This document shows, in pieces, positions 14,422 to 60,360 of a stretch of DNA of 64,000 nt. Under the pieces are notes generated by a model, which was not told the origin of the DNA, did not search any database, and saw only the letters and a list, made by a program, of their open reading frames with translations. Both the position numbers and the translations under genes were made by a program. The stretch covers positions 312,699-376,698 of the forward strand of contig CAYPCX010000001.1 in NCBI GenBank assembly GCA_964409365.1. The letters are read 5' to 3'. Within the stretch, counting starts at the first letter, position 1. Each line of letters begins with the position of its first letter. The DNA comes from an uncultured Planctomycetia bacterium (GTDB lineage: Bacteria; Omnitrophota; Gorgyraeia; Tantalellales; Tantalellaceae).

Positions 14422-14424
14422 AGA

Positions 14425-15744: not shown

Positions 15745-15975
<231 letters not shown>

Positions 15976-15978
15976 GTT

Positions 15979-17718: not shown

Positions 17719-17770
17719 TCTTAAAACCTGAGACCTGAGACCTGAGACCTGGAACCTGTGGCCTGATTTT
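17719..17770. repeat. CCTGAGA heptamer tandem repeat (about 5 units)
   Basis: cttaaaacctgagacctgagacctgagacctggaacctgtggcctga; the same motif recurs at 32980-33012. Confidence 0.8.
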
Positions 17771-19269: not shown

Positions 19270-19292
19270 ATAAGAACGGACAAGGTAATAAA

Positions 19293-20360
19293 ATGGATGC
19301 GAAGATAAAGAAAATACTGGTCGACATGCCCCAAAAATGCGCGTCCGATCTTCACATAAGCGCGGATTCGCCTATCCATTACAGGATAAACAACGATCTG
19401 GTGGCGGTGGACGAGCAGGTGCTCACACCCGATGAGGCCAGGAAGGTCATATACAGCCTTATGACCGATCATCAGGTGCGGAAGTTCGAGGAAGAAAAAG
19501 AGCTGGACTTTTCCTTTTCCATCGCCGGGGTGGGCCGGTACAGGGCTAACGCTTTCATTCAACGGAACAGTCTCGGTTGTTCCATCAGGATGATACCGCT
19601 CAGGATCATGAGCATCAAGGAATGCGGCCTTCCCGTAGACATAGTTAAAGGTTTCTGTAACGCCAATAAAGGACTGGTGCTTGTAACCGGCGCTACCGGC
19701 AGCGGGAAATCCACCACGCTCGCCGCGATGGTGGAGGAGATAAACCAGACCCGGAAATGCCATATCGTGACCGTGGAAGACCCCATCGAATTCATCCACG
19801 ATAATAAGCAAGCCATCGTCGACCAGAGACAGGTGTTCGAGGACACGAATTCTTTCAACAACGCGCTCAGGCACGTGCTGAGACAGGATCCCGACGTCAT
19901 ACTTATAGGCGAGCTGCGCGACCTTGACAGCATACGGGAGGCCCTGGTCATAGCCGATACCGGCCATCTTGTGCTGGGAACGCTTCATACCTCGGACAGC
20001 ATACAGACCATAAACAGGCTGGTGGACATATTCCCGCCCTACCAGCAGAACCAGATAAGGTTCCAGCTTTCTTTCATCCTGCTGGGTATCGTAGCGCAGC
20101 AGCTCATACCCCGCAAGGATAAGTCCGGCATGGTGCTCGCCACCGAGGTCTTGGTATCCACCCCGGCCATAAGGAGCATGATCAGGGAGAGCAAGGAGCA
20201 CCAGATATATTCCATACTGCAGACGTCCCAGAAGTACGGCATGCGCACGATGAACCAGTCGCTGGCCGATCTTTACATGCAGGGAAAGATAAGCTATGAG
20301 CATGCTATATCGCGGTCTTCGAACACGGAAGAGCTGGAAAAACTTATAGAGAAGGGATGA
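19293..20360 (+). CDS. pilT: Type IV pilus retraction ATPase PilT
   Basis: 355 aa, Walker A GATGSGKSTTLAAM, PilT-type Asp/His boxes, AIRSMIRE motif. Confidence 0.9.
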   Translation: MDAKIKKILVDMPQKCASDLHISADSPIHYRINNDLVAVDEQVLTPDEARKVIYSLMTDHQVRKFEEEKELDFSFSIAGVGRYRANAFIQRNSLGCSIRMIPLRIMSIKECGLPVDIVKGFCNANKGLVLVTGATGSGKSTTLAAMVEEINQTRKCHIVTVEDPIEFIHDNKQAIVDQRQVFEDTNSFNNALRHVLRQDPDVILIGELRDLDSIREALVIADTGHLVLGTLHTSDSIQTINRLVDIFPPYQQNQIRFQLSFILLGIVAQQLIPRKDKSGMVLATEVLVSTPAIRSMIRESKEHQIYSILQTSQKYGMRTMNQSLADLYMQGKISYEHAISRSSNTEELEKLIEKG

Positions 20361-20366
20361 TGAAGA

Positions 20367-20813
20367 GTGGGTCCTGAAAAACGGATAGCGAAAAAACTAG
20401 GCGAGATCCTCGTAAACAACGCGGCTATCACCGAGGAACAGCTGCAGCGGGCGCTGGATTTCCAGAGGAGGGAAGGGGGCCTTCTGGGGGAGATCCTGGT
20501 CAAGCTCGGATATATAGGCGAGCGGGAGATAGTCCAGGCGCTGACCACCCAGTACGGGTTCCCGTTCGTCCTGCTGGAAAGCTTTGACTTCAACCAGGAA
20601 GCGGGGAAGCTGGTACCCGAGAACGTGGCGAGGCAGTACAGCCTGGTCCCGCTCGATATCATAGGGGAGCTCTTGACCGTGGCCATGTCAAACCCCCTCA
20701 ACGAAGCGGCCATCGACGACCTCGAAATGATAACAAAAAAAAAGGTGCAGGTCTTTATCAGCACTTTTACGTCCATACACGAAGGTATCAACAGGCTTTA
20801 TCAAAAGAAGTAA
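20367..20813 (+). CDS. Standalone GspE/PilB N-terminal (MshEN-type) domain protein, putative c-di-GMP receptor
   Basis: 148 aa; two tandem matches to the MshEN c-di-GMP-binding motif (KLGEILVNNAAITEEQLQRALDFQ and LLGEILVKLGYIGEREIVQALTTQ). Confidence 0.6.
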   Translation: MGPEKRIAKKLGEILVNNAAITEEQLQRALDFQRREGGLLGEILVKLGYIGEREIVQALTTQYGFPFVLLESFDFNQEAGKLVPENVARQYSLVPLDIIGELLTVAMSNPLNEAAIDDLEMITKKKVQVFISTFTSIHEGINRLYQKK

Positions 20814-20821
20814 TTTAAAAT

Positions 20822-22537
20822 ATGGCCCGGTCACTGACTGAAAAGATTTATGACCTGCTTATCGAGAAAAAGCTTGTTTCCGAAGAGGACCTCAAAAAGG
20901 CGCGTGATGTCTACACGAAAAAAGGAGGCAGCCTCAGCGATATACTGGTCAAGATGAACGTGGTCTCCAAGGACGACCTCTTGACCACGCTCAGCGAAGG
21001 TCTGGGCTTCCCGCCGGTAAACCTTTCGAGGGTCAAAATATCCGACGAGACCCTCAAGCTGATACCCAGAAGGATCGCCATGCTGTACCGCATACTTCCG
21101 ATCTCGCGCATCGGTGAGATGCTTACCGTCGCGATGGTGGACCCCCTTAATGTACTGGCCCTGGACGACGTCAAAGCGATCACGAAACTGGATATAAGCC
21201 CCGTCATCGCCGCGGAGGACGATATGGAAGAGGCGATAACCAGGTATTACGAACGGTCCGCCGACGAGCAGATCAGCGAGATCGTGGACGAGGCGGAAGG
21301 CGCGCGCATGGAAATGGTCGCGGAGGGAACGATGGATTTTTCCTCGGGAGAACTCTTGCGCGTGACCGAGGAAGCTCCCGTGGTGAAGCTTACCAACGTT
21401 ATCCTGAGCCGGGGGGTGAAGGAGAGGGCCAGCGATATACTGATCGAGCCCATGGAGACCAGTTCCCGGGTCAGGTACCGGATAGACGGTATATTGTCCG
21501 AGCAATATGCCCCTCCAAGGAAGCTCCATCATGCTATCGTCTCGCGTATAAAGGTAATGTCCGATCTTGACATAGCCGAAAGGCGGCTTCCCCAGGACGG
21601 GCGTTTCAGGATCAAGGTAGAGGACCGGAAGGTGGACTTCAGGGTCTCCGTGATACCTTCGAGCATGGGGGAAAAGGTCGCGCTCAGGATCCTCGATAAA
21701 CAGCAGGCGATGATAGACCTTGACAAGCTCGGGTTTACCGAGCGTGACAAAGAGAGGATCCGCAACTCCAGCAAAAGGCCTCACGGGATGATATTGATGT
21801 GCGGCCCGACGGGCTGCGGCAAGACCACCACGCTGTATTCGATATTGCAGTACGTGGACGATCCGGAAAAGAATCTCGTGACGGTCGAGGACCCCGTGGA
21901 GTACGAGCTCAAAGGGATCAACCAGGTAGCCATAAACGAGGATATTGGCCTGACGTTCGCGGGCTGCCTCAGGTCGATATTACGGCAGGACCCCGATGTA
22001 ATAATGGTCGGCGAGATACGTGACTTCGAGACGGTCGATATAGCGATAAAGTCCGCGTTGACCGGGCACCTGGTGCTGAGCACGCTCCACACGAATACCG
22101 CGAGCGGGTCCATAGTCAGGCTGGTCAACATGGGCGTGGAACCCTTCCTTATAGCGGCTTCGATAGAGCTAATAGGCGCGCAGAGGCTGGTCCGGAGGCT
22201 CTGCCCGGAATGCAAAGAGGTCTATCTTCCTTCTAAGGAGATCGCCGATAAATACGGGCTTTACAGCAGAAAAGGGGAGATCGCGAAGATATACAAACCG
22301 CAGGGCTGTAAAAGGTGCATGGGCACGGGTTACCAGGGGCGGATCGGGATAATCGAGTGCATGAAACTGACCCAGGGGATAAAAGAGCTCATATTCGCCC
22401 GTGCCGAGGAACGCGATATAGAAAAAAAAGCCAGGGAAGAAGGCATGACCACGTTAAGGGAGAACGGCATCGAGGACGTTCTGGCAGGCCTTACCTCTCT
22501 TGAAGAAGTGCTGCGCGTTACGGTGGAAGGCAGATGA
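20822..22537 (+). CDS. pilB: Type IV pilus / T2SS assembly ATPase, GspE/PilB family (paralog 1)
   Basis: Two N-terminal T2SE_N domains, Walker A CGPTGCGKTTTLYS, tetracysteine CPEC...CKRC. Confidence 0.9.
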   Translation: MARSLTEKIYDLLIEKKLVSEEDLKKARDVYTKKGGSLSDILVKMNVVSKDDLLTTLSEGLGFPPVNLSRVKISDETLKLIPRRIAMLYRILPISRIGEMLTVAMVDPLNVLALDDVKAITKLDISPVIAAEDDMEEAITRYYERSADEQISEIVDEAEGARMEMVAEGTMDFSSGELLRVTEEAPVVKLTNVILSRGVKERASDILIEPMETSSRVRYRIDGILSEQYAPPRKLHHAIVSRIKVMSDLDIAERRLPQDGRFRIKVEDRKVDFRVSVIPSSMGEKVALRILDKQQAMIDLDKLGFTERDKERIRNSSKRPHGMILMCGPTGCGKTTTLYSILQYVDDPEKNLVTVEDPVEYELKGINQVAINEDIGLTFAGCLRSILRQDPDVIMVGEIRDFETVDIAIKSALTGHLVLSTLHTNTASGSIVRLVNMGVEPFLIAASIELIGAQRLVRRLCPECKEVYLPSKEIADKYGLYSRKGEIAKIYKPQGCKRCMGTGYQGRIGIIECMKLTQGIKELIFARAEERDIEKKAREEGMTTLRENGIEDVLAGLTSLEEVLRVTVEGR

Positions 22538-24252
22538 CGAAAAAGACCATAAGGGACAAGATAATTGACGCCATTCTCGAGCGCAAGCTCGTTGACGGGG
22601 ACCGCCTGAAGGTCATCCTGGACGAAGGCAGGAAGGACAGGGAGAGCAACGTCATAAGGAAACTCATGGACAGCGACATGATATCCGACAGGGACCTTCT
22701 GATAGTCCTTAGCCAGGAGCTGAACATCCCGCCCATAGACATGACGAGAGTAGCGCTTGACCCGAAGATGATGGAACTCTTACCCGAGAAACTTGTCAGG
22801 CGGCATAATGTCGTCCCGCTGTCGCGAATAGGGGACCACCTGACGGTGATCGTCTCCGACCCGACCGACGTATTCACTATAGATGACATAAAGACCGTTA
22901 CGGGTTGCGGCGTGGAACTGGCTATCTCGACCCGCAGGAGCCTGCAGGAGGCCATACAGAGTTATTATTCCGGCGAGGAAATGGAGGACATAACCAGCAT
23001 CGTCGAGGAAGGGGAGGAAGAAGAAGCCGGGTCCGTAGAGATACTGGGGAAAGAAGAGGGTTTCGACATATCGGAGGTTACGAAGGAAAGCAAGGCGGCG
23101 CCCATCGTGAAAATGGTGGACCTCATAATAAGCGAGGCCATCAAGAAAAGGGCGAGCGATATACATATAGAGCCGATGGAGAGGTCGCTGCGCATCAGGT
23201 ACCGTATCGACGGCGCGCTCCACGACGTCTTCGACCTGCCTAAAAAGAACCAGAACGCGCTGCTTGCCAGGCTCAAGATAATGTCCAACCTCGATATTAC
23301 CGAGACAAGGCTGCCCCAGGACGGCAGGTTCAGGATAAAGATGGAAGGCAGGGAGATAGATTTCAGGGTATCCTGCCTGCCCATAACGAGCGGCAACAAG
23401 ATAGTCCTCAGGGCCCTGGACAGGAGCAACCTGTCGGTGGGCCTGGATACGCTGGGTTTTCTGCCGGGGCCACTGGACGATTTCAAAACGGCGCTTTCCA
23501 AGCCGTTCGGTATAATACTCGTGACCGGTCCGACCGGGAGCGGAAAATCCACGACCCTTTATTCCGTGCTCACGGAACTTAACGTCCCCGAGAGGAATAT
23601 AATAACCGTCGAGGACCCGGTGGAATACCAGGTGGCCGGTATAACCCAGATAGCCGCGAAGCCGGAGATCGGACTGGATTTCGCGAACGGCCTGCGCGCG
23701 ATCCTGAGACAGAGCCCCGACGTGATAATGGTCGGCGAGATAAGGGATTTCGAAACGGCCGATATCGCCATCAAGGCGTCGCTTACGGGGCAGATGGTGC
23801 TCAGCACGCTGCATACCAACGACGCGGTGGGCGCGATCACGCGCCTTGAGAACATGGGCATAGAACCTTTTCTGGTAGCGTCCAGCCTGCTCATGGCGTG
23901 CGCCCAGAGGCTGATGAGGAAGATCTGCCCGTACTGCAGGAACGAGGCCACCCTGCCGAAAGAGGTCATAAAGGACATCAGGGCGAAATTCCCGGAAGCG
24001 CGCGGCGTGGAAAAGTTCTTTGAAGGCAGGGGGTGTTCGAGGTGCAACAATACGGGGTACCTCGGCCGGATGGGTACATTGGAGACGGTTCTCGTAGATG
24101 ATACGTTGAGGGAGATGATTAACAAGAAGACCTCCGAGCAGGATATAAAGGAGTATCTGAACTCGAAAGGGGTAAGGACGCTCAGGGAGAACGCGATGAT
24201 AAAGTTCATCAAGGGGGATACAACCCTTGAAGAGGTATTAAGGGTCACCTGA
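22534..24252 (+). CDS. Type IV pilus / T2SS assembly ATPase, GspE/PilB family (paralog 2)
   Basis: Walker A TGPTGSGKSTTLYS, tetracysteine CPYC...CSRC; start ATGA overlaps the stop of paralog 1. Confidence 0.9.
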   Translation: MTKKTIRDKIIDAILERKLVDGDRLKVILDEGRKDRESNVIRKLMDSDMISDRDLLIVLSQELNIPPIDMTRVALDPKMMELLPEKLVRRHNVVPLSRIGDHLTVIVSDPTDVFTIDDIKTVTGCGVELAISTRRSLQEAIQSYYSGEEMEDITSIVEEGEEEEAGSVEILGKEEGFDISEVTKESKAAPIVKMVDLIISEAIKKRASDIHIEPMERSLRIRYRIDGALHDVFDLPKKNQNALLARLKIMSNLDITETRLPQDGRFRIKMEGREIDFRVSCLPITSGNKIVLRALDRSNLSVGLDTLGFLPGPLDDFKTALSKPFGIILVTGPTGSGKSTTLYSVLTELNVPERNIITVEDPVEYQVAGITQIAAKPEIGLDFANGLRAILRQSPDVIMVGEIRDFETADIAIKASLTGQMVLSTLHTNDAVGAITRLENMGIEPFLVASSLLMACAQRLMRKICPYCRNEATLPKEVIKDIRAKFPEARGVEKFFEGRGCSRCNNTGYLGRMGTLETVLVDDTLREMINKKTSEQDIKEYLNSKGVRTLRENAMIKFIKGDTTLEEVLRVT

Positions 24253-24259
24253 TAACGAT

Positions 24260-25480
24260 ATGGCAAAGTTCAACTATACGGTAAAGGACAGGGAAGGCAG
24301 GACCATAAAGGGAAGCCTCGTGGCGCCGGACAAAAAGCAGGCGGTCGACGCCCTCAGGAACAGCAACTACTTTGTCCTCAAGCTCGAACAGGTAGCCGAG
24401 AGAGGGGCCTTGCTCTCGTCTTTCAAGCTCCCGGGCGGCGGGAAGATCAACCTGGACGAACTTGTCGTGTTCTCCCGCCAGATGGCCACGATGATAGGCT
24501 CCGGCATCACCGTTGTCAATTCCCTTGACATCCTGGCCGAACAGACGACCAACGAAAAGTTCAAGGCCACACTGAACGAGATACGGAACGCGGTGAACAC
24601 GGGGGCGAGCCTGTCCGACGCCATGATGAAACACTCGGCCGTGTTCTCCCCGCTTTTCGTCAACATGGTGAAAGCGGGGGAGTCCAGCGGCACGCTCGAC
24701 GTCATTCTTGACAGGGTGGCATCGTACATGGAAAAGACCAACGCTCTCCAGAAAAAAATAAAATCAGCGCTTGTATACCCCGCCATAGTGTCTTTGATGG
24801 CTATCGGCATATCCCTGGTGATGATACTCAAGGTCATTCCGGTATTCAAGGATATGTACAAGGGGTTCGGCGCGGCGTTACCGGCGCCGACGCAGTTCCT
24901 TATAGACGTCAGCGATTTCATACGCGGCAATTTCCTGATATTTACAGGAATAGTCGTCGTTGTTGCCTTTATCTTCAGGTGGTACCTGAACTCGGAAAAA
25001 GGTAAACTGAAAGTGGACGGCATCAAGCTCAAACTTCCTATCTTCGGGCCTCTCTTAAAAAAGGTAGCCATAAGCAAGTTTACCAGGACGCTCAGCACGC
25101 TGGTAAAAAGCGGTGTTCCCATATTGGCCGCGCTTGAGATAGTGGCCAAGACATCCGGCAACCTTGTCGTGGAAAGTTCGGTCGACAGGGTAAAGGACAG
25201 GGTAAGGGAGGGGGAGAACATAGCGGCGCCTCTTGAAAAGAGCGGCATTTTCCCGCCGATGGTCACCCGTATGGTGGCTGTGGGAGAGAAGAGCGGACAG
25301 CTGGAGAAAATGCTGACCAAGATCTCCGATTTTTTCGACGAACAGGTCGATTCCACCGTCAACGCTTTGACAAGCCTGATAGAACCGCTGATAATAGCTT
25401 TTCTGGGGCTGATCATAGGCGGTATAGTGCTTTGTATGTTCCTGCCGATATTCAAGATATCCTCGATCGTCCAATTCTGA
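24260..25480 (+). CDS. pilC: Type IV pilus inner-membrane platform protein PilC (GspF family)
   Basis: Two T2SSF repeats, 3 TM, 406 aa. Confidence 0.9.
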   Translation: MAKFNYTVKDREGRTIKGSLVAPDKKQAVDALRNSNYFVLKLEQVAERGALLSSFKLPGGGKINLDELVVFSRQMATMIGSGITVVNSLDILAEQTTNEKFKATLNEIRNAVNTGASLSDAMMKHSAVFSPLFVNMVKAGESSGTLDVILDRVASYMEKTNALQKKIKSALVYPAIVSLMAIGISLVMILKVIPVFKDMYKGFGAALPAPTQFLIDVSDFIRGNFLIFTGIVVVVAFIFRWYLNSEKGKLKVDGIKLKLPIFGPLLKKVAISKFTRTLSTLVKSGVPILAALEIVAKTSGNLVVESSVDRVKDRVREGENIAAPLEKSGIFPPMVTRMVAVGEKSGQLEKMLTKISDFFDEQVDSTVNALTSLIEPLIIAFLGLIIGGIVLCMFLPIFKISSIVQF

Positions 25481-25656
25481 AATCCATTCGAAGATCGCTG
25501 TAAGACGTTAAGGATCATAATAGTGTGAAATGGAAATTAAAGACTTTTACAAAGCTGAGCAAGAATTTGCATTTACTGGTCCTCAAATGTATACTTGAAC
25601 TAGAGGATATTGTTGAAGTGTATCCTCAATACGCTCTTTGAAAGGAGGTGAGAACG

Positions 25657-26001
25657 ATGAAGATGCGCAAATTTCTTGGCAAAGGTGGCTTCACGCTTGT
25701 TGAAATCATGATAGTTGTCGCAATTATAGGTCTATTAGCGGCAGTAGCCATCCCGAACTTTGTACGCGCGCGCGAAAGAGCCCAGACGAATGCCTGTATC
25801 GCCAACCTTAAACAGGTTGACGGTGCGAAGACGTTGTGGGCCCTTGACACAGGGGCGACTTCCGGGGACGCATGTGTAATGTCCAACCTGGTGACGTCTT
25901 ATATCAAGTCGACACCGAGTTGTCCGGCAGGAGGCACGTACACGGTAGGCAACATAGGGACCGAACCGGCATGTACGGTTTCGGGACACGTGCTGCCGTA
26001 A
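25657..26001 (+). CDS. Type IV pilin (prepilin with class III leader; candidate major pilin)
   Basis: MKMRKFLGKGG|FTLVEIM with G-1, F+1, E+5; hydrophobic alpha1 helix; 4 Cys in C-terminal globular part; strong SD AGGAGG 8 nt upstream. Confidence 0.8.
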   Translation: MKMRKFLGKGGFTLVEIMIVVAIIGLLAAVAIPNFVRARERAQTNACIANLKQVDGAKTLWALDTGATSGDACVMSNLVTSYIKSTPSCPAGGTYTVGNIGTEPACTVSGHVLP

Positions 26002-26027
26002 TAATTACGGCATTTCAAGCGTGAGAA

Positions 26028-26065
26028 AAAAGGAGGGTGGATCATCCACTCTCCTTTTTTTTTAA
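26028..26065 (+). terminator. Rho-independent terminator after the pilin gene (bidirectional-looking: A-run, GC stem, T-run)
   Basis: aaaaaaggagggtggatcatccactctccttttttttt: 10-bp stem with one mismatch, followed by T9. Confidence 0.8.
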
Positions 26066-26131
26066 ATAAGGATAAGGGGTGGGGCAGGGAGATACTTGTC
26101 TTTACCCGCCGCACATGGTATTTTATTATTC

Positions 26132-35148: not shown

Positions 35149-35565
35149 ATGATGAGGATTTTCCGGAATCAGAAGGGAATAACTCTCGTAGAGGTCATCG
35201 TGTCGGTGATCCTGGTAGCTATCATCGTTACCTCCATTATCGTCACCGTGGCCCAGAGTTCCGTGTATTCGAACCGGATCGATCTGATATATACTTCCTC
35301 CAACCTGGCGAAGGCCCGGATGGACGAACTAAAACTTCTCCAGTTCTCCGATCTGGCCGATAGGGGGAGCGAGAGCGCCGTGCGCATAGACGAGAACGGC
35401 CAGCCGGATGCAAGTGGTGACTATCTCAGGACTACCGAGATTACCGGAGATTATGACGGTAACGCCTACCTGGCGAAAGTAAAGGTCAGTGTGGACAAAT
35501 ACGTGGACGGCCAGCCTTCAGGGAGCCCGGTCGTCATCGAGACGCTTTTTGCCGATATAGAATAA
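35149..35565 (+). CDS. Prepilin-type N-terminal cleavage/methylation domain protein (pseudopilin / minor pilin)
   Basis: QKG|ITLVEVIVSVILVAIIV class III signal with E+5, 138 aa. Confidence 0.7.
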   Translation: MMRIFRNQKGITLVEVIVSVILVAIIVTSIIVTVAQSSVYSNRIDLIYTSSNLAKARMDELKLLQFSDLADRGSESAVRIDENGQPDASGDYLRTTEITGDYDGNAYLAKVKVSVDKYVDGQPSGSPVVIETLFADIE

Positions 35566-35579
35566 GAGAAGGAGCCTTT

Positions 35580-37871
35580 ATGAGACGCTATATTAGCGAC
35601 GGAAGAGGATTTACTCTTACCGAGGTCATGTTCGTTGCCGTGATCTCCGTGATAGTCATCGGGACCATCCTGTCGGCGTGGATATTCACCCACAAAGCCT
35701 GGACCATAGAAGGAGAGCGCACCCGCCTGCGCGTTGACATGACCAAGGGTATGGAGACGGTACAGGACGATATCCGGCTCTCAAGCGCGACTTACATTGT
35801 CGTGTATCCCGCTGACAGCGTTTCCGGGGCCTACACGGCGATAAGCATGCCGGTAGCCGATACGGACGCGGCCGGTTTTTACACCCTGGATGCCGGCGGC
35901 GCGATAGAATGGGACAGGACGGTCATCTACCATATCTTTACCGATGACGACGGCAACAAGACGTTAAGACGCACCGTCTATGATCCCCGGGATAACACCA
36001 TGAGCGATACCGACCGGTATAACCAGCTGGCGGCCGTCGTGTCGGCCGGCACCGGAGGGGTAGGTTCTACGACGGACACGGAATTCCTGGAGAACCTGGA
36101 CACGTTCGAGGTCGCGCCGCTGCCGCTGACGATAGATTTTTACGAGGATTCCGAGGACCCGGTCAGGATGGGCAAAGTGATATTCGGGTGGGCCCGGATG
36201 GATGCGGGGGACCATACGGTGCGCTTTGAGGTCACCGGAAAGAACGACGATTCGAGCGGTTACGCTTTCGGTCTTGATTACCTGAGGATCGAGCCCTGCG
36301 GAAGCCGCCGGGAGGCGGAATATTATAATTCTTCTTTCGCGCCTTCGGGAGCGCTGTCCTCCAACGGGAAGACCGTAAACAGGGTATATGATAATACGTG
36401 GAGCAATGACAACTATCTCGAATACCAGGCGACCGCCGAGGACGATTATATAACGATCACCGATTATTATGACCTCTGGAGGGAGTCCACGTTCTCGGAT
36501 TCGAGCAGGAACAACACGATGTTCTATGAAGAGGAAGTCCGCGTGAAGATAGAGCTTCCCGAAGACCGCGAGACAGGAAAAGAACAGATAAGGTGGTACG
36601 CGTCGGAGCAGTCGGGTGACACCCAGCAGGACGGGCGCGATGGTTACGCCAACCCGGGCGCCCCGACATCGGCGCCTTCCGAGCCGTTGGTCATCAGGAC
36701 CGTCATCAAGAACGCTTTTATAGATATGGACGCCGACGCGGGAGAGAAGGCGGATCTCGTAAGGGTAAAGTTCAAGTCGTCTTCTTCCGACGCGCTGAAG
36801 ATCGCGAAGGCATATATAACCCGCAGGGATCCCATTGTCGCCGACGACAGTAACCCCGAATATTATAACGGTAAGGTCAACCTTGACCCCTCCGGCAGGG
36901 ATATCGATGAGTATCATATGCATCAGCAGCTTTTCTTCGAGGATACGTCGACGGGGGACATGCTCGAGGGCGTGACCATAGAAGCCGGCGAAGAGGCGTG
37001 GACCGTATGGACAGCTTTCCCGCTGATCGTCAGAGATTCGGATTCGACCGATCTTGACTATCTCGTTACCTATTACGCGGATGACGTGTCTGATTCGAGC
37101 TGTAAATACTGGCAGGGGACGTCATACAACACGTGTTACATAACCGGGGCGGATTACTCGACGACAGAGCTCGGAAGAGCGGCCGGGACGCCCGTGTGGG
37201 GCAGCGATTATACTATCCGTTATTTTTCGGACGATATCTGCGCCGTGTCGGACATCGATACGTGGGAAAATGAAGGGACGGTGGAATCGAATATTTTCGA
37301 TACCGCAGAGGCATCCCCGGTGTACAACCAGATAAAGTGGTCTGAAGACAGACCGGCCGGCACTAACATTATCATGAAGACGCGTTCGTCCGAAGACCAG
37401 TTCATGGAAAACGCCACGGACTGGAGCCTCATTACGGGATCCGGCGTGAATCCCCATTCGCTTTCGATATCGAGTGACAGGTATGTACAGTTCATGGCCC
37501 AGATAAGTACCGACCCCTTCTGGGAATGCTCCGCCGGGACGCTTGCCTACGCGGATTACGTGGACGAGCAGAGAAATCTTGCCGGCGCACCGTATACGTT
37601 CCCTTCGCGCAGCGGGGAATATCTTGTGACGGGTCTTTATTCCGCGTGGATAGACGACGTCGAGATAGACTGGCCGGGCGAAGACAGGACCTGTGTGCTG
37701 AGCGGTTACATCGCCAGAAAGGACGATTACGGCCAGGTGAAAGTGAAAGTGGACGGGAAGGATATCTTCAGGGTCTACAGGGTGGATTTAGAGGTCTCGG
37801 CCGATTTTCAGGACCGCACGTTGGAGGAGGCCAGCAGCGTGGAACTTGAGCCAAGGAATACGGGACGGTGA
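35580..37871 (+). CDS. Large (763 aa) prepilin-like protein, candidate pilus-associated adhesin
   Basis: GRG|FTLTEVMFVAVISVIVIG prepilin N-terminus followed by a long Asp/Ser/Thr/Tyr-rich beta-type region. Confidence 0.55.
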   Translation: MRRYISDGRGFTLTEVMFVAVISVIVIGTILSAWIFTHKAWTIEGERTRLRVDMTKGMETVQDDIRLSSATYIVVYPADSVSGAYTAISMPVADTDAAGFYTLDAGGAIEWDRTVIYHIFTDDDGNKTLRRTVYDPRDNTMSDTDRYNQLAAVVSAGTGGVGSTTDTEFLENLDTFEVAPLPLTIDFYEDSEDPVRMGKVIFGWARMDAGDHTVRFEVTGKNDDSSGYAFGLDYLRIEPCGSRREAEYYNSSFAPSGALSSNGKTVNRVYDNTWSNDNYLEYQATAEDDYITITDYYDLWRESTFSDSSRNNTMFYEEEVRVKIELPEDRETGKEQIRWYASEQSGDTQQDGRDGYANPGAPTSAPSEPLVIRTVIKNAFIDMDADAGEKADLVRVKFKSSSSDALKIAKAYITRRDPIVADDSNPEYYNGKVNLDPSGRDIDEYHMHQQLFFEDTSTGDMLEGVTIEAGEEAWTVWTAFPLIVRDSDSTDLDYLVTYYADDVSDSSCKYWQGTSYNTCYITGADYSTTELGRAAGTPVWGSDYTIRYFSDDICAVSDIDTWENEGTVESNIFDTAEASPVYNQIKWSEDRPAGTNIIMKTRSSEDQFMENATDWSLITGSGVNPHSLSISSDRYVQFMAQISTDPFWECSAGTLAYADYVDEQRNLAGAPYTFPSRSGEYLVTGLYSAWIDDVEIDWPGEDRTCVLSGYIARKDDYGQVKVKVDGKDIFRVYRVDLEVSADFQDRTLEEASSVELEPRNTGR

Positions 37872-37960
37872 TCCAGGTTTCAGGTCTCAGGAGTATGGAG
37901 AAAACATGTTTTTCTCAAAGGCCCGAAACCCGACACCAGAAACCTGACACCTGGACTTAC
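37865..37960. repeat. ~90-nt hairpin-plus-heptamer element, family 3, copy 2 (contains the perfect palindrome AAAACATGTTTT)
   Basis: ccaggtttcaggtctcaggagtatggagaaaacatgtttttctcaaaggcccgaaacccgacaccagaaacctgacacctgg. Confidence 0.75.
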
Positions 37961-37972
37961 GGAAAAGAAGGT

Positions 37973-39127
37973 ATGCTTGGGAAGTTGATCAAAAAAACAG
38001 GTGATCAAAAAGGCATAGTTCTCGTGGTCGTGATGTCGTTCGCGGCGCTAATCGTCCTGAGTACGCTCTCTCTCAGTACTATAGTAAAGCGGGATATCGA
38101 GCTGGTCGGGTCCGTCAAGTACAGGGCGCAGGCGAGATATCTGGCGGAGGCCGGTATCAGTCACGCCCTGGCCAGGATAAAGCAGGAAGATTTCAGCTCA
38201 AGGTCGGATCTGAACAGCAGCCTGGATATCGGTTCGTACAGCGTGAGCTTCTCGGAGGCCGGCGGCAGGTACCTGGTGACGTCCGTGGGCACCGCTTACG
38301 GGATGACAAGAACGGTCACGGCAGAGATAGAAAATCTCGCGCCGACGGCCATGCGGTACAGCTGTATCGCGGGGAACAATATCGGGATCAACGGCTCCGG
38401 TAAGACCGTTGATATTGAAGGGGATATCCACGCGAACAATAACGTCTATCTGAAATGCTCCTGGCTTTCGGGAAGTATCACGATAACGGGAGACGTTTCG
38501 GCGACGGGTATCGTCAAGGAAGGTTCGAAGCTCCACCGGAGAGACGGGTTCTGGGGCGGCTGGCAGGATTGGAAAGTGTATATCAACGGTTTGAACGACG
38601 ACAAAGCGGAAGTTGGCGAGGACGACAGTAAAGCCAGCTTCCCGAGCTTTGATTACGAAAAGTACCGGGAGGAGGCGATAGATTCCGGCGATTATTATGA
38701 TACGGACCAGGTCTTCGACAGTGTGAACCTGGATCCCGGTAACGGTATAGTATTCGTGGACGGGCGCGTCACGTTCGAGGGGAATTCGACGATAAGGGGG
38801 GGCGTTGTAGCCGATGATATCACGATTAACGGCGCCCTGACCCAGTACAAAAGCGGAGAAAGGAACGTTATCATAGCGAGGGAAGGGGACATCGGCCTAA
38901 GGGGGGACCTGGATGTGGAGGAGGCGGTCGTGTATTCGGTGAAAGATATCCGGACCGATGCGAGCGGCGTGGATATTACGATAGACGGCGTCATGATGGC
39001 CCGGCGGGATATCAATATGTGGACCAATCCCGCTAATATGGATTATGATTACGTGGAGATATATCCGAGCGATGTCGGTTCGGGAGGCGAAGAACAGACA
39101 TTCGCTGTTGTGAGCTGGAATAGGTGA
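37973..39127 (+). CDS. PilX-N-domain minor pilin-like protein with C-terminal beta-helix-like repeats (paralog 1)
   Basis: KGIVLVVVMSFAALIVLSTLSLS...YRAQARYLAEAGISHALARIK resembles the PilX N-terminal domain; repetitive hydrophobic/Gly C-terminal segments. Confidence 0.55.
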   Translation: MLGKLIKKTGDQKGIVLVVVMSFAALIVLSTLSLSTIVKRDIELVGSVKYRAQARYLAEAGISHALARIKQEDFSSRSDLNSSLDIGSYSVSFSEAGGRYLVTSVGTAYGMTRTVTAEIENLAPTAMRYSCIAGNNIGINGSGKTVDIEGDIHANNNVYLKCSWLSGSITITGDVSATGIVKEGSKLHRRDGFWGGWQDWKVYINGLNDDKAEVGEDDSKASFPSFDYEKYREEAIDSGDYYDTDQVFDSVNLDPGNGIVFVDGRVTFEGNSTIRGGVVADDITINGALTQYKSGERNVIIAREGDIGLRGDLDVEEAVVYSVKDIRTDASGVDITIDGVMMARRDINMWTNPANMDYDYVEIYPSDVGSGGEEQTFAVVSWNR

Positions 39128-39159
39128 GCCAGGTGTCAGGGGTGAAAGGGGGCGGAGCG

Positions 39160-40326
39160 ATGAAGGTGCGACTTTTGACTGGAAGAACAGCAGCAAGTAC
39201 GCCCCATCAGAAGGGGGCGGTGCTTGTCGTGGTCATAGCTTTCGCGACATTGGTCGTTATGTCCACGCTGGCCTTGTCCACCATGGTGCAGCGGGATGCC
39301 GAGCTCATCCGTGTCACCAGGGACCGCTCGCAGGCCCAGTATGTGGCGGAGGCCGGCTTGCACCACGCGCTTGCGAGGTTCAAGAGCGAGAATTTCGCGT
39401 CCAGGTCCGACTTTACCGGGGATCTGGACACCGGTTCATACAGCGTTACTTTTTCCGAAGAAAGCGGCAGGCACCTGATAACTTCCATAGGCACCGTGGG
39501 CAATAATTCAAAAACCGCTTCCATCGAGGTCGAGAACCTCATGCCGACGGCCATGTTCTACCTTTCGGCCGCGGGTAACGACATAAGGATAAACTCGTTC
39601 GTTGCGGACGCGGAAATAAACGGGGACATACACGCCAATAACGACGTCTATCTGAAATCCGGTCCGCTTATAGCGTTCCTAATGATAACCGGGGACGTCT
39701 CGGCCACGGGCGTTGTGAAGGAAGGTTCGCGTCTGCACCAGGCGGACGGGCTCTTCGGGGGATTCCTTGACCTTCACGTCTATATCAACGGGGTGAACCA
39801 GGATGACGCTTTTGTCGACGAAGGTGCGCCCAGGGTCATTTTCCCGACGTTCAATTATGACCAGTACCGCCAGGCGGCGGAGGATTCAGGCGAGTATTAT
39901 GACACGGATACCACCTTTAACGGCCAGACCGTCGATCCTTCCGAGGGCATAGTATACGTGAACGGGAACGCCAGGTTCGAAGGGAACTGCACGATAAACG
40001 GGGGCGTCGTGGCCGACGAGATAACGGTAACAGGGACACTGAACCAGGTCAAAAAGGGGAACCGTAACGTCGTCATAGCCAAGGAGGGGGATATAGGTAT
40101 CCTGGGCCGTCTCTACACGGAGGAAGCCGTCGTATACGCGGGAAGGGATATACGTTCCCTGCAGGTCCTGGCCGAGATCGAGATCAACGGGGTGATCATG
40201 GCACGCAGGGACATATACATGTGGAATTTCCTTACGCGGATAGATTACAACTACGTGGAGACCTATCCGACCGATGTCGGGGATCAGGACGACCAGCAGT
40301 TCGGCATTATCAGCTGGAACCTGTAA
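39160..40326 (+). CDS. PilX-N-domain minor pilin-like protein (paralog 2)
   Basis: Same architecture; long identical stretches with paralog 3 (MPTAMFYLSAAGNDIRINSFVA.AEINGDIHANNDVYLKSGPLIAFL). Confidence 0.55.
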   Translation: MKVRLLTGRTAASTPHQKGAVLVVVIAFATLVVMSTLALSTMVQRDAELIRVTRDRSQAQYVAEAGLHHALARFKSENFASRSDFTGDLDTGSYSVTFSEESGRHLITSIGTVGNNSKTASIEVENLMPTAMFYLSAAGNDIRINSFVADAEINGDIHANNDVYLKSGPLIAFLMITGDVSATGVVKEGSRLHQADGLFGGFLDLHVYINGVNQDDAFVDEGAPRVIFPTFNYDQYRQAAEDSGEYYDTDTTFNGQTVDPSEGIVYVNGNARFEGNCTINGGVVADEITVTGTLNQVKKGNRNVVIAKEGDIGILGRLYTEEAVVYAGRDIRSLQVLAEIEINGVIMARRDIYMWNFLTRIDYNYVETYPTDVGDQDDQQFGIISWNL

Positions 40327-40357
40327 TGATGCTTGAGACGTTTTTAGAGTGATAACA

Positions 40358-40470
40358 GAAAAGGAAAGGGTATCCCGTGCTCAAAAAGTAACCAGTTTCC
40401 AGTAACCAGAAAAAAATAATCTGGTAACGGGTTACGGGCAACTGGTTACTACGTTAGGTCTCAGATGTCA
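40358..40470. repeat. Partial copy of the ~95-nt hairpin element (5' arm only) fused to a CCAGTAACC/GGTTACTGG inverted heptamer patch
   Basis: aaaggaaagggtatcccgtgctcaaaaagtaaccagtttccagtaaccag...ggtaacgggttacgggcaactggttact. Confidence 0.6.
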
Positions 40471-40487
40471 GGTTAAAGGAAGGGGAT

Positions 40488-41654
40488 ATGAGAAAAAAAG
40501 GCGTTTTAGACATGACCGGATCCATGTTAACGGACCGGAAGGGGACAGTGCTCATGGTCGTAATGGCGTTCGTGACGCTGATGGTCCTGACCACGCTTGC
40601 CCTCTCCAATATGGTGCAGAGGGATGCCGAGCTTATCCGGGTGACCAGGGGCCGTTCACAGGCGCAGTACGTGGCCGAAGCGGGTCTTCACCACGCCCTT
40701 GCCAGGTTCAAGACCGAGAGTTTCGCTTCAAGGGAGGATTTCACGGGGAATTTAGACCTGGGTTCTTACGAGGTGACGTTCGCCACGAAGCACGGGAGAC
40801 ATCTTGTAACCTCGGTCGGGACGGTCGGCGACATGTCCAGGACGGTCTCCATGGAGGTCGAGAGCCTGATGCCGACGGCCATGTTCTACCTTTCGGCCGC
40901 GGGTAACGACATAAGGATAAACTCTTTCGTGGCGAATGCAGAAATAAACGGCGATATCCATGCCAACAATGATGTCTATCTGAAATCCGGCCCGCTCATC
41001 GCGTTTCTCACTATTACCGGTGATGTGTCCGCGACGGGTGTCGTAAAGGAGGGTTCCAAACTTCATGCGGCAGACGGGCTGTTGGGAGCTTATCTTGACC
41101 TCCACGTATATATCAACGGGATGAACGAGGATACCGCTACCGTTTACGAAGAAGAAAGCAGGCTGACTTTCCCCACGTTCGATTATGACCAGTACCGTCA
41201 GGTGGCAATAGATTCGGGATCATATTATGACACCGATCAGGTTTTCAGCGGCGAGACCTTCGATCCGGCCGAAGGCATCGTCTACGTGGACGGCACCGTG
41301 AGATTTGAGGGCAATTGCACGGTCAACGGCGGTATCATTGCCGATGATATAACCATAGCAGGGACTTTGAACCAGGTAAAAAAGGCCAACCGGAACGTTA
41401 TTCTGGCGAAAGAAGGAGATATAGGTGTACTGGGCCGGCTTTACACGGAAGAAGCCGTTGTATACGCGGGAAGGGATATACGCTCTTTGCAGATAGGGGC
41501 CGATATCGAGGTCAACGGGTTGATAATGGCCCGTAGGGATATTTACATGTGGAATTTCCTTACCATGATCGACTATAACTATGTGGAGACCTACCCGGAC
41601 GATGTCGGTGAACAGGACGACCAGCAGTTCGGCATTATCAGCTGGAACCTGTGA
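40488..41654 (+). CDS. PilX-N-domain minor pilin-like protein (paralog 3)
   Basis: Near-identical to paralog 2 over most of its length; SD aaggaagggg upstream. Confidence 0.55.
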   Translation: MRKKGVLDMTGSMLTDRKGTVLMVVMAFVTLMVLTTLALSNMVQRDAELIRVTRGRSQAQYVAEAGLHHALARFKTESFASREDFTGNLDLGSYEVTFATKHGRHLVTSVGTVGDMSRTVSMEVESLMPTAMFYLSAAGNDIRINSFVANAEINGDIHANNDVYLKSGPLIAFLTITGDVSATGVVKEGSKLHAADGLLGAYLDLHVYINGMNEDTATVYEEESRLTFPTFDYDQYRQVAIDSGSYYDTDQVFSGETFDPAEGIVYVDGTVRFEGNCTVNGGIIADDITIAGTLNQVKKANRNVILAKEGDIGVLGRLYTEEAVVYAGRDIRSLQIGADIEVNGLIMARRDIYMWNFLTMIDYNYVETYPDDVGEQDDQQFGIISWNL

Positions 41655-41663
41655 CGATATGGC

Positions 41664-41724
41664 TTGACAACAGCATACCCTTTTGATAATATTTATAATA
41701 CCCCGTGAAGGGGTTATTTTTATT
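41664..41724 (+). promoter_or_regulatory. Candidate promoter (TTGACA-17-TAATAT) followed immediately by a GC hairpin and T-run (ACCCCGTGAAGGGGTtatttttatt), upstream of rplU
   Basis: Direct reading; the hairpin could terminate the pilX block, act as an rplU leader structure, or both. Confidence 0.4.
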
Positions 41725-41773: not shown

Positions 41774-42088
41774 ATGTACGCAGTAATAGAGCTTATGGGC
41801 GCGCAGGTCAGGGTCGAAAAGGACGATAAGTTCACGGTCAACAGGATGAAGCCGCAGAAGGCCAGGACCATAAGATGTGATAAAGTGCTTTTCGCCAGGA
41901 AAGGGAATTCCTACAAGATAGGGACGCCGTACGTGAAAGACGCCTATGTCGAGTGCGAGATACTGGGCGATAAACGCCTGCCCAAAGTAACGGCGTTCAA
42001 GTACAGGGAAAGAAAGAGCTCCCAGTCGACGAAGGGGCACAGGCAGGACGTTACCGAACTTAAAGTAAAAGATATCCACATGGAGTAA
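41774..42088 (+). CDS. rplU: 50S ribosomal protein L21
   Basis: MYAVIE.GG.Q..V start and KG.R....KFKRR-type core, 104 aa. Confidence 0.95.
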   Translation: MYAVIELMGAQVRVEKDDKFTVNRMKPQKARTIRCDKVLFARKGNSYKIGTPYVKDAYVECEILGDKRLPKVTAFKYRERKSSQSTKGHRQDVTELKVKDIHME

Positions 42089-42089
42089 G

Positions 42090-42295
42090 AACAGATGTCA
42101 GAAAACAGAGGACAGGGAACAGTGATAAGTAACACGGATAAAGGAAAAAGGATAAAGTGCCAAGTATCAAGTGTTGAGTTGTGAGTTGTTAGTTATGAGT
42201 TGTACGACTAAGAACTAAAAACTAACAACTAAAAACTAACAACTAACATCTTACATCTGACTTCTGTATTCTGGAACGATGCGATAAACGAGGAG
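42090..42295. repeat. Composite heptamer mosaic in inverted orientation, between rplU and rpmA
   Basis: caagtatcaagtgttgagttgtgagttgttagttatgagttgtacgactaa is the reverse complement of 6491-6541 with one mismatch. Confidence 0.85.
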
Positions 42296-45865: not shown

Positions 45866-45955
45866 ATTAGGTGACAGGTGGAGGAAGAAGGCATGGTTTC
45901 CCAACGGTCTAAAACCTGAAACTTGGAACTTGAAACCTGAAACTTGAGGCCTGAA
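45866..45955. repeat. ~90-nt hairpin-plus-heptamer element, family 3, copy 3 (GAAACCT/GAAACTT heptamer tail)
   Basis: gtgacaggtggaggaagaaggcatggtttcccaacggtctaaaacctgaaacttggaacttgaaacctgaaacttgaggcctgaa. Confidence 0.75.
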
Positions 45956-46528
45956 ATGAAAATAGGACTGCTTGGAGGCACATTCAATCCCGTCCACATC
46001 GGGCATATGATACTTGCCCAGGAGTGCTGGTCACAGCTTGTGCTGGACAAGGTCATCTTCGTACCCGCGCGCATACCGCCTCTTAAGGAAATGGAAGGAA
46101 AGGCGTCGGACGAAGACCGCATGAACATGGTGCGCATGGCGGTCGAGGGGGATGACAGGTTCGAAACGTCCTCTTACGAGATGGGAAGGGACGAGGAGTC
46201 ATATTCGATCAACACGATAAAGCATTTCAGGAAGGAATACAGCCCGGACACCGAGTTGTTTTTCCTGACAGGCGCCGACGCGGCGGAGAGCCTTTCGATG
46301 TGGAAGGACATCGACGAGATCCTCGAGATGACGAATTTCGTGATCGCGACCCGTCCCGGATGGGGAGAGAAGAGCCCTTACGAAAGGAAGGTCTGGCGGA
46401 TAGTAATCCCCCAGATAGAGGTATCCTCCAGCATGATAAGAGAGCGGATACGGAACCGGGAGCCCATCGATTATCTGGTGCCGGCCCCGGTGGTGAAATA
46501 CATAATGAACAAAGGCCTGTATAAATAA
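45956..46528 (+). CDS. nadD: Nicotinate-nucleotide adenylyltransferase
   Basis: MKIGLLGGTFNPVHIGH (H/T-x-G-H motif) at N-term, about 190 aa. Confidence 0.85.
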   Translation: MKIGLLGGTFNPVHIGHMILAQECWSQLVLDKVIFVPARIPPLKEMEGKASDEDRMNMVRMAVEGDDRFETSSYEMGRDEESYSINTIKHFRKEYSPDTELFFLTGADAAESLSMWKDIDEILEMTNFVIATRPGWGEKSPYERKVWRIVIPQIEVSSSMIRERIRNREPIDYLVPAPVVKYIMNKGLYK

Positions 46529-53734: not shown

Positions 53735-53832
53735 GAAAAAGGAAAGGACCTCCCGTGCTCAAACAGTTTTTGCCGCGCCCATTTCCAACAGCAAAAAAAC
53801 TGCGCGCGGGAGACCATTTCCTTTTTTTATGG
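53735..53832. repeat. ~95-nt long-hairpin intergenic element, copy C
   Basis: GGAAAGGACCTCCCGTGCTCAAACAGTTTTTGC-cgcgcccatttccaaCAGCAAAAAAACTGCGCGCGGGAGACCATTTCCTTTTT. Confidence 0.85.
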
Positions 53833-59476: not shown

Positions 59477-60314
59477 AAAGAAGGGTGAGAAGATCGACCG
59501 GAAATGGCTCGTCTTTACGGCCGCCGGCGCTTTTCTGGCAGGGATCATACTTTCAGCCGCTTTTTTGATGTTGAGACCGCCTGTTAGGGAGGTCCCGGTC
59601 CCTGAAAAAGAAGCGCCCGTTATCCGTCCGGCGGAGAAGGAACCCGTCGTTGCGCTCGTACTGGATGATTTCGGTTACACGCAGAAGAACCTTGAGGGGG
59701 TCAGGGATATAGGCGCGCCGGTCACGCTGGCGGTGCTTCCCAACACGCCGTACGCCGGCGCCGTATGCTCTTTTGCAAGGAAGAACGGAATAGAAGTGAT
59801 ACTGCACATGCCCATGGAGCCCAGGGACAGGACGATCAGCCTCGAAAAGGACACGTTGACCACGGAGATGTCCCCGGCGGAGGTAAGAAATATCATAGAT
59901 GAAGCGTACGCTGCTGTACCCGGGGCAGACGGGATGTCCAACCACCAGGGATCCGGCGCTACCGCGGACGAACAGCTCATGACCGTTGTCCTGGAGGATA
60001 TCAAACAGAGAAGACAGTTCTTCCTCGACAGCATGACCACGGGCAGGTCGGTCTGCGGCGAGGTGGCGGGTCGCCTGAAAGTCCCCTGCGTTAAAAGGGA
60101 TATCTTTCTGGACCACGAAATGGACAGGGAATCGATACGAAAGCAGATGGCGAAGCTTGACAGCATTGCCCGCAGGAAAGGCAGGGCCGTGGCGATAGGG
60201 CATGACCGCGAAATGACGGTATCCGTGCTCCGGGAGGTGGTCCCGAAGATGCGAGAGAACGGGATCAGGTTCATTTCACTTTCGGAAATGGTAGATAAAA
60301 CAGAAGGCAGATGA
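59436..60314 (+). CDS. Divergent polysaccharide deacetylase family protein (YibQ-like)
   Basis: Lys-rich N-term plus TM, then VALVLDDFGY...ILHMPMEP matching pfam04748-type proteins; 41-nt overlap with ctpA. Confidence 0.65.
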   Translation: MKKKQGKKKQKKSKKKGEKIDRKWLVFTAAGAFLAGIILSAAFLMLRPPVREVPVPEKEAPVIRPAEKEPVVALVLDDFGYTQKNLEGVRDIGAPVTLAVLPNTPYAGAVCSFARKNGIEVILHMPMEPRDRTISLEKDTLTTEMSPAEVRNIIDEAYAAVPGADGMSNHQGSGATADEQLMTVVLEDIKQRRQFFLDSMTTGRSVCGEVAGRLKVPCVKRDIFLDHEMDRESIRKQMAKLDSIARRKGRAVAIGHDREMTVSVLREVVPKMRENGIRFISLSEMVDKTEGR

Positions 60315-60360
60315 CAGAAGGCAGAGGACAGAAGGCAGAGGACAGAGGACAGAAGATATG
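60300..60360. repeat. GAAGGCA/GGACAGA heptamer tandem repeat
   Basis: cagaaggcagatgacagaaggcagaggacagaaggcagaggacagaggacagaagat. Confidence 0.8.

Follow-up and report, generated by a model that had tools for sequence, protein, structure and literature searches.

The stretch of DNA analyzed here, called the window, covers 64,000 nucleotides (nt) of an uncultured bacterium placed in the Omnitrophota (assembly GCA_964409365.1, contig CAYPCX010000001.1, positions 312,699 to 376,698). Coordinates are positions in the window unless a locus of a relative, given as an L number, is named. Five open reading frames (ORFs) on the + strand were confirmed at 35149-41654, between the ribonuclease gene rng and the ribosomal protein gene rplU, and each has a pilin-type N-terminal helix. 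An earlier note, made from the sequence of the window, had described them as genes for a pseudopilin, a 763-amino-acid prepilin-like protein, and three PilX-like proteins, and both the location and these identities held up, the latter being backed by signal motifs and profile matches. We call the genes mp1, mp2, px1, px2, and px3. The same locus was independently assembled in the ENA and JGI assemblies, in which the three-px arrangement was seen, and partly in the Logan assemblies, which reach only the start of px2.

The product of mp1 has a class-III signal peptide with the cleavage motif KG↓ITLVE (↓, cleavage site), in which Glu5 is kept, and G10 and E15 are invariant in its family. When the mp1 profile was aligned to the E. 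coli K-12 pseudopilins with hhalign, GspI was the best match at a probability of 86.5% over 71 columns, compared to 54% or less for GspG, GspH, GspJ, and GspK. The NCBIfam matches to PilV/GspI were weak and below the cut-off.

The second gene, mp2, encodes a class-III signal peptide (RG↓FTLTE) with Glu5, and both Gly-1 (G10) and Glu5 (E15) are invariant across 50 homologs. Its N_methyl score was 18.1 bits vs. a cutoff of 21.2, and 28 of the 50 relatives match N_methyl. No Pfam domain beyond N_methyl was found in mp2 by a Pfam scan that included the mp2 family. AlphaFold2 (AF2) models of mp2 and px3 were built on 50-sequence alignments. The mp2 model (pLDDT 91) shows a pilin α1 helix and, after it, β-sandwich domains that span about 700 residues. 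Foldseek searches of the PDB with full-length mp2 gave low-TM sub-domain matches only, and these sub-domains resemble ConA-type lectins and phage tail-fiber, hemagglutinin-like, and baseplate proteins. In PDB profile searches, residues ~190-235 matched the MiXBM module of xanthan lyase (7EHG, E 3e-5); this match, of the carbohydrate-binding module (CBM) kind, spans 45 residues and was the only one found for mp2. Alignment with the E. coli pseudopilins was limited to the generic N-terminal helix, with no detectable GspJ similarity beyond α1, and we infer the PilJ role of mp2 solely from its gene position. In this family of pilins of roughly 700-800 amino acids (aa), 50%-identity clusters gave 292 representatives at E<=1e-30. 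Judging from the predicted domains, mp2 is a probable tip adhesin.

The extreme C-terminus of mp2 (37842-37871), which reads …EPRNTG[KR], is almost invariant across the 50 homologs (P758, N760, T761, and G762). A role as a signal for assembly or interaction, as with the C-terminal strand in PilY1/PilC, is possible. We considered whether mp2 itself could be PilY1-like and rejected this, as its model starts with an α1 helix of the pilin type and the listed matches include no PilY1 structure. There was also no PilY1/PilC family match for the block proteins or the neighboring genes scanned.

The three px genes differ from mp1 and mp2 at the signal motif. Their N-termini read KG↓(I/A/T)VL(V/M)V without Glu5, and the family consensus, KGxVLxxVMxF, likewise has no Glu. 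Homolog alignment puts the likely true starts at ATG 37973 for px1 and ATG 39160 for px2. The gene-caller ORFs (37868-39127 and 39124-40326) use GTG starts that read through spacers, and the GTG at 37868 would take px1 through the hairpin of the mp2-to-px1 spacer. Matches of px1-3 to PilX_N (E 0.01-0.017) and to the NCBIfam GspK N-terminal model (E 2e-4 to 6e-4, with px1 at 2e-4) were weak and below cut-off; 20 of 50 family members match PilX_N, the best at 6e-7. Aligned to the E. coli pseudopilins with hhalign, the px profile matched GspK best, but at a probability of just 40%, with the others at 15% or less.

The AF2 model of px3 (pLDDT 84) contains an α1 helix, a four-stranded pilin sheet, a β-solenoid at residues 136-364, and a final β-strand at 381-387. 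The predicted topology is that of ComZ, with the solenoid inserted between the penultimate and last pilin strands. Foldseek returned Thermus thermophilus ComZ (6QVI) as the best match (E 4e-8, probability 1.00), followed by ice-binding solenoids. A profile search of the PDB with the px family gave no match, ComZ included. Nearly all family members share S385 and W386 at the C-terminus.

The proteins px2 and px3 are 77% identical and both are sister to the single ortholog in L011 (62%), whereas px1 is 55-56% identical to either. Between px2 and px3, the ratio of nonsynonymous to synonymous substitutions (dN/dS) is 0.11 at a dS of 1.3, and comparisons with px1 gave 0.12-0.22. Since dN/dS is 0.11-0.22 and dS is 1.3-2.8, which is saturated, the three copies are old, under purifying selection, and maintained. 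A recent duplication giving rise to px2 and px3 was rejected on the basis of their dS of about 1.3.

A pilus machine is encoded upstream of the block (Table 1). Its locus holds genes for PilT, a stand-alone MshEN protein, two PilB paralogs, PilC, a 117-aa pilin, a tetratricopeptide repeat (TPR) protein, PilM, PilN, PilO, a PilP-like protein, and a PilQ secretin. The presence of PilT and PilMNOPQ identifies it as a type IVa pilus (T4aP) and not a type II secretion system (T2SS), and Pfam scans found no GspC, GspL, or GspM in this adjacent locus.

Table 1. Features of the block between rng and rplU and of its surroundings, with window positions
Feature	Position	Strand	Basis
Partner type IVa pilus machine locus	19293-32820	+	Pfam matches
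Short DUF2344/TIGR03936 protein, 109 aa	33065-33394	+	Profile positions 2-95 of 209
rng, Rne/Rng family ribonuclease	33493-35043	+	TIGR00757 2e-149; RNase_E_G 3e-104
rng-to-mp1 spacer, AT-rich, unstructured	35044-35148	+	Fold z-score +0.68
mp1, GspI/PilV-type minor pilin, 138 aa, PilI position	35149-35565	+	N_methyl above Pfam cutoff
mp2, 763-aa prepilin at PilJ/PilW/GspJ position	35580-37871	+	AF2 model, homolog alignment
mp2-to-px1 spacer hairpin of period-7 units	37872-37955	+	Fold -29.3 kcal/mol, z -1.9
px1, Glu5-less PilX/GspK/ComZ-type cap pilin, most divergent paralog	37973-39127	+	Homolog alignment
px2, cap pilin paralog	39160-40326	+	Homolog alignment
px2-to-px3 spacer	40327-40487	+	Repeat families, folding
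px3, cap pilin paralog, used for structure model	40488-41654	+	AF2, Foldseek
rplU-operon promoter-like site TTGACA, 17 nt, TG-TAATAT	41664-41692	+	Consensus match, conserved in relatives
GC hairpin ACCCCGTGAAGGGGT then T-run TATTTTTATT	41700-41724	+	Terminator scan
rplU (L21), right neighbor of the block	41774-42088	+	Profile matches

The arrangement of these genes was followed through relatives, with 78 loci contributed by a metagenome scan; counts are of eligible loci only, and a few loci are the same population sampled twice. In the clade-A Omnitrophota loci (mp2 >=36% identical), the gene immediately before the cassette is rng in 26 of 27 loci; a px gene comes after mp2 in 27 of 27, and rplU comes after the cassette in 17 of 19. 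The exceptions were L092, which is a partial match, Ca. Omnitrophus magneticus, which has nrdD in place of rplU, and a contig that ends within a triplicated module. The reference-genome relative L001 has the same order with a single PilX-like gene; its Rng is 68% identical and its minor pilins are about 40% identical. All eight annotated contexts of mp2 homologs (38-55% identity) read pilMNOPQ, short DUF2344, rng, mp1, mp2, px, and pilMNOPQ is directly upstream of DUF2344-rng in all clade-A loci. The named homologs of mp2 and px all belong to Candidatus Omnitrophota/Omnitrophica.

The order mp1-mp2-px holds in all loci compared, including a distant clade B with a high GC content (0.60-0.68) and mp2 proteins 25-34% identical, whose named homologs are likewise labeled Omnitrophica. 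There the same triad occurs with rng nearby in 0 of 22 loci and rplU nearby in 0 of 18. L097 (7918-13191) and L098 (8077-14347) share an address for the triad, with an Alginate_exp porin gene on its upstream side and a PilZ gene on its downstream side. Because clades A and B keep the same triad at different addresses, the triad is a self-contained cassette with stable, clade-specific positions. Further high-GC triad loci at another address are L050, L056, L057, and L066; in L057 the triad stands directly before PilM/N/O-like ORFs, and L098 carries two px genes.

In most clade-A loci, mp2 and rplU are about 1.3 kb apart, which leaves room for one PilX-like gene. Besides the three px genes of the window, expansions were found in L013, with two px genes from an independent duplication (67% identity), and in L014 and L024, with extra genes. 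Those of L014 (13790-16442) are three uncharacterized genes for proteins of 134, 191, and 558 aa; the 558-aa protein has a PilX-like N-terminus. In L017 (9199-17796) the whole module is doubled, with two mp1-mp2-px sets between rng and rplU, and L018 (9589-20716) has three mp2-px pairs. The gene content of these loci indicates that what varies between genomes is tandem copy number.

Several characterized systems resemble this cassette. ComZ, a tip pilin of the GspK type, contains a β-solenoid, and ice-binding solenoids are also among its structural matches (PMC6561018). Its placement in the ComZ-PilA2 tip of the T. thermophilus competence pilus (6QVI) was argued on structural grounds (Salleh et al. 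2019, PMC6561018). Like ComZ, px3 has a predicted GspK-like pilin domain with a large β-solenoid before the last β-strand. Unlike ComZ, the px proteins are shorter (about 385 aa vs. about 500 residues for ComZ chains), have no detectable sequence similarity to it, come as three paralogs, and neighbor a J-position pilin of 763 aa. The cyanobacterial PilX1-3 proteins also contain a β-solenoid and have been proposed to cap distinct priming complexes (bioRxiv 10.64898/2026.02.12.705559). Our cassette shares with the PilX1-3/PilV sets a Glu5-less solenoid PilX, several paralogs per genome, and the general absence of an encoded PilY1. It differs from them in its phylum, in being known from its genes alone, and in having a single PilV-like gene and a single PilW-position gene for three caps.

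The order I-J-K, the presence of Glu5 in I and J and not in K, and the C-terminal strand of K in cis are shared with GspI-GspJ-GspK of the T2SS of enterotoxigenic E. coli (ETEC; 3CI0) and with PilIJK of T4aP (PMC13533445), in line with the best matches of mp1 to GspI and px to GspK. Unlike the ETEC complex, the machine here is a T4aP, K has a β-solenoid in place of the α-domain, J is about four times larger and detectably resembles GspJ in α1 only, and the block contains no GspH-type gene. The FimU-PilVWX-PilY1 cluster of Pseudomonas aeruginosa and the sets of Myxococcus xanthus are also minor-pilin clusters occurring as multiple sets, and they prime T4aP assembly and form an adhesive tip (PMC8833165). 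In contrast to these, no PilY1/PilC-like protein is present here and the adhesin function presumably lies within mp2 and px. In this genome the cap gene alone is multiplied; the relatives L017 and L018 multiply the whole module. The modular adhesin pilins PilB of Streptococcus sanguinis and CofB of ETEC likewise join a pilin N-terminal module to bulky extra domains, and these extra domains confer adhesion. The β-sandwiches of mp2 are unrelated to theirs, have no Pfam model, and belong to the J position of an I-J-K triad.

We consider it probable that the block is the core minor-pilin cassette, that is, the tip or priming complex, of a T4aP in PilI-PilJ-PilK order, and that it works as follows. 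The pilI-J-K order is almost invariably syntenic in type IV pilus (T4P) systems and T2SS, a PilK without Glu5 is a hallmark of the apical PilK/PilX/GspK subunit, and the C-terminal strand of PilK is supplied in cis or by PilY1 (PMC13533445). On the PilIJK/GspIJK tip-complex model, the GspI/PilV-like mp1 and mp2 at the PilJ/PilW position would pair in the inner membrane, and one of the Glu5-less, PilK-type px1, px2, and px3, each with a predicted ComZ-like β-solenoid, would cap the pair. The conserved C-terminal β-strand of px (…SW…) would complete the pilin sheet in cis, which would make a PilY1-type protein unnecessary. The mp1-mp2-px trimer would prime the polymerization of major pilin, carried out by the neighboring PilB/PilC/PilMNOPQ machine, and stay at the pilus tip. 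There, the lectin/CBM-like β-sandwich domains of mp2 and the px solenoid would form an adhesive surface, probably for host or prey cells, and three px paralogs on a common mp1-mp2 base would allow three alternative tips. T4aP are near-universal in the Omnitrophota and tied to host attachment (PMC10066038).

Some points weigh against this assignment. Complex formation, tip location, adhesion, and alternative cap use are what we infer, and we identified no adapter pilin of the GspH/FimU type within the block. The px matches to PilX_N and GspK are all under the curated cut-offs. The promoter and terminator calls around the genes are consensus matches with totals at chance (9 vs. 8.4 expected and 9 vs. 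8.8), and only sites that are conserved or placed in spacers were used. Finally, an ancestral rng-rplU adjacency could not be established from the Rng anchor scan of reference genomes, which returned one Omnitrophota relative and Elusimicrobia only.

Another possible explanation is that the cassette forms the tip of a competence (DNA-uptake) pilus, in which the solenoid cap would be a DNA receptor as in Thermus and the filament would not be adhesive. Among solved structures, the one nearest to px3 is that of ComZ, a tip pilin that binds DNA, and the cyanobacterial PilX subfamilies include competence-specific sets. However, comEA, comEC, and dprA were not among the window genes scanned, and the lectin/CBM-like and tail-fiber-like domains of mp2 suggest glycan or cell-surface binding. 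With the link of Omnitrophota T4aP to host attachment (PMC10066038) also speaking for adhesion, we regard a DNA-uptake tip as unlikely.

A different question is whether the cassette's position was selected through co-expression with rplU-rpmA-obg, RNase G processing at the spacer hairpins, or both, as the earlier note had in part suggested with its possible co-regulation of pili with ribosomal and RNase loci. All the genes are on the same strand, the order pilQ-DUF2344-rng-cassette is kept across the clade, and hairpins lie in the spacers. No terminator was called in the rng-to-mp1 spacer, and the gap between rng and mp1 is 1, -11, and 8 bp in L011, L012, and L017, respectively. Since the spacer is unstructured and without a terminator, and the genes abut or overlap in these three relatives, co-transcription of the cassette with rng is plausible. 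The sites found in the sequence suggest that the cassette is probably transcribed from upstream, via or right after rng, and independently of rplU.

At the other end, the motif cTTGACAA-N17-TGnTAnTAT precedes rplU in 7 of 7 Omnitrophota loci that have rplU after the cassette, across spacers of 115-546 bp (L001 15581, L011 13452, L012 13536, L013 15316, L014 16562, and L017 17910 in the relatives). rplU heads an operon that is conserved across many phyla (PMC3351149). This conserved promoter and operon headship imply that the ribosomal protein operon has a promoter of its own, which makes co-regulation with rplU unlikely. The operon is also conserved in many phyla without pilins, the clade-B cassette is away from both rng and rplU, Ca. 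Omnitrophus magneticus has nrdD after the cassette, and spacer hairpins occur between unrelated genes too. Functional coupling therefore has, in our judgment, only a small chance of explaining the position. The near-consensus extended -10 promoter before rplU could act as a promoter model for this uncultivated phylum.

The hairpin and T-run downstream of px3 had been taken as the right boundary of the block. The structure is real, but it is not a simple border: it sits just 3' of the conserved -10 box and is not conserved in relatives, and in L017 a terminator lies 5' of the rplU promoter instead. It may stop read-through from the pilin genes and would also occupy the 5' end of the rplU transcript. 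Rfam searches around the block gave nothing at E<=1 except two chance miRNA matches, and no match in the whole window reached the gathering score. Since there was no Rfam match, the hairpin upstream of rplU is not a described L21 leader.

It is very unlikely that the triad is instead GspI-GspJ-GspK at the pseudopilus tip of a T2SS. In favor of this reading, GspI and GspK gave the best profile matches, and NCBI and JGI name several homologs 'type II secretion system protein'. These database names, however, stem from generic prepilin-domain annotation. The sole adjacent machine is one of PilT, PilM, PilN, PilO, a PilP-like protein, and a PilQ-type secretin, without GspC/GspL/GspM, and px has a predicted ComZ-type β-solenoid and not the α-domain of GspK.

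As one explanation of the location, the earlier note had offered a site-preferring insertion between rng and rplU. The block has a GC content of 0.542 vs. 0.534 and a GC3 of 0.69 vs. 0.70 for the window, and its relative synonymous codon usage (RSCU) correlates with that of the housekeeping genes at r 0.95. The two block junctions have no common k-mer of 8 nt or longer, there is no tRNA in the window, and no integrase, transposase, or mobility domains were found among the window genes scanned. A mobile element or genomic island was rejected given this normal composition, the lack of junction repeats, tRNA, and mobility genes, and a distribution that is not patchy.

The note had also placed a repeat family at 37865-37960. 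This is a real period-7 array (Tandem Repeats Finder, period 7/14 at 37925-37953) that folds into a long imperfect hairpin, but it is not specific to the block. At least 13 spacers of the window hold arrays of this class, among them mreC/mreD, mrdA/rodA, rodA/radical-SAM, rplU/rpmA, and proA/nadD; the arrays are therefore not insertion flanks and are a genome-wide spacer feature. The rng-[minor pilins]-rplU order kept across clade A is the outcome that the note itself had named as a sign of old, stable synteny and as refuting its view. The cassette's position is inherited, lies at the boundary of two transcription units, and has stayed the same since the common ancestor of a large group of Omnitrophota. 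The supposed direct succession of rng and rplU is not seen in the Elusimicrobia loci compared. A search of the literature brought up no paper stating rng-rplU synteny directly.

Although pilus genes do break housekeeping strings at two places, as the note said, with radical-SAM and DUF2344 fused in Elusimicrobia and split in the window, repeats lie within the block, and the distant clade implies at least one relocation in the cassette's history, a recent or site-specific insertion marked by the period-7 repeats is extremely unlikely given a position kept in 26 of 27 (rng) and 17 of 19 (rplU) loci at about 40% minor-pilin identity, the ordinary composition and absence of insertion signs, the same repeats between core genes, and a dS that is saturated even between px paralogs.

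The 7-nt tandem arrays of the window lie at 6396-6598, 11844-12220, 14424-14626, 15757-15973, 17726-17766, 29254-29283, 32921-33011, 33376-33405, 37925-37953, 40387-40409, 42088-42248, 45912-45956, and 60300-60356. Their heptamer units include GACAGAG, ACTGGTT, AGTCACA, and ACTAACA, among others, and the folded arrays are long imperfect hairpins with arms from complementary heptamer families. They could act between cistrons in RNA stability or processing. The px2-to-px3 spacer contains the 5' half of a second, ~100-nt long-hairpin repeat (40342-40389), followed by a period-7 hairpin (about 40387-40450). Five full copies of the ~100-nt repeat are found at 7445-7538, 28016-28086, 53739-53832, 62087-62180, and 63196-63289, all co-oriented with the genes and each shortly 3' of a stop codon. 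Three full copies that were folded gave a nested hairpin of ~40 bp (-28 to -46 kcal/mol, z -2.7 to -6.1). A T-run closes most of the copies. This repeat looks like a dispersed terminator-type element.

The wider gene order of the window is mreBCD, mrdA, rodA, radical SAM, T4P machine, DUF2344, rng, cassette, and then the string rplU-rpmA-obg-proB-proA-nadD-(small ORF)-rsfS, of which the first three genes encode L21, L27, and Obg; argS, mfd, and further genes lie downstream of rsfS. The radical-SAM gene (15916-17718) is parted from its DUF2344 partner by the ~15 kb machine locus, and in the Elusimicrobia locus L005 (6326-8779) the two are fused as a single 817-aa protein. The DUF2344 protein here keeps just its N-terminal ~100 aa, covering the first half of the family profile, and it measures 77-145 aa in the annotated clade-A loci. 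A GGDEF-HAMP gene (17860-19269) stands just 5' of the machine locus, so that the region at its start (17860-24252) encodes a GGDEF-HAMP diguanylate cyclase, PilT, the stand-alone MshEN protein of 148 aa, and the two PilB paralogs, both of which bear an MshEN domain. This gene content suggests control of pilus extension by cyclic di-GMP.

Farther downstream, a 183-aa protein (62251-62802) unusually pairs a bactofilin domain (5e-25) with an HTH_17 DNA-binding domain at its C-terminus. In E. coli K-12, the cryptic gsp T2SS locus (L099, NC_000913.3 3452959-3466220) adjoins the S10 operon (rpsJ-rplC-rplD), so pilus/T2SS loci beside ribosomal operons occur elsewhere too; we know of no functional link between the two.

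The Omnitrophota are uncultivated, mostly ultra-small, and thought to be attached to hosts or prey, with T4aP as their most widespread candidate attachment organelle (PMC10066038). The presence of T4aP in this phylum (PMC10066038) and of β-solenoid PilX/ComZ caps in Thermus and cyanobacteria is already known. New are a place in a PilIJK-type cassette for three Omnitrophota families that public records mostly call 'hypothetical', the family of giant pilins at the J position, and the fixed address of the cassette with its recurrent tandem expansion. Its placement is a case of old inherited synteny at an operon boundary and not of a targeting mechanism. The address pilMNOPQ, DUF2344, rng, cassette, rplU can serve as a landmark to find and compare the cassette in fragmented metagenome-assembled genomes.

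The cassette proteins are obvious candidates for host-recognition determinants. Beyond the core assignment, we suggest tentatively, as an idea with rather less than an even chance, that they form an interchangeable-tip system for host recognition, with a common mp1-mp2 base and alternative β-solenoid caps, tuned by recurrent tandem multiplication of the caps or of entire modules at this address. If so, having one to three copies in different Omnitrophota would tune which host or prey surfaces can be grasped by these ultra-small and probably host-dependent cells, much like cassette swaps in phage tail fibers.

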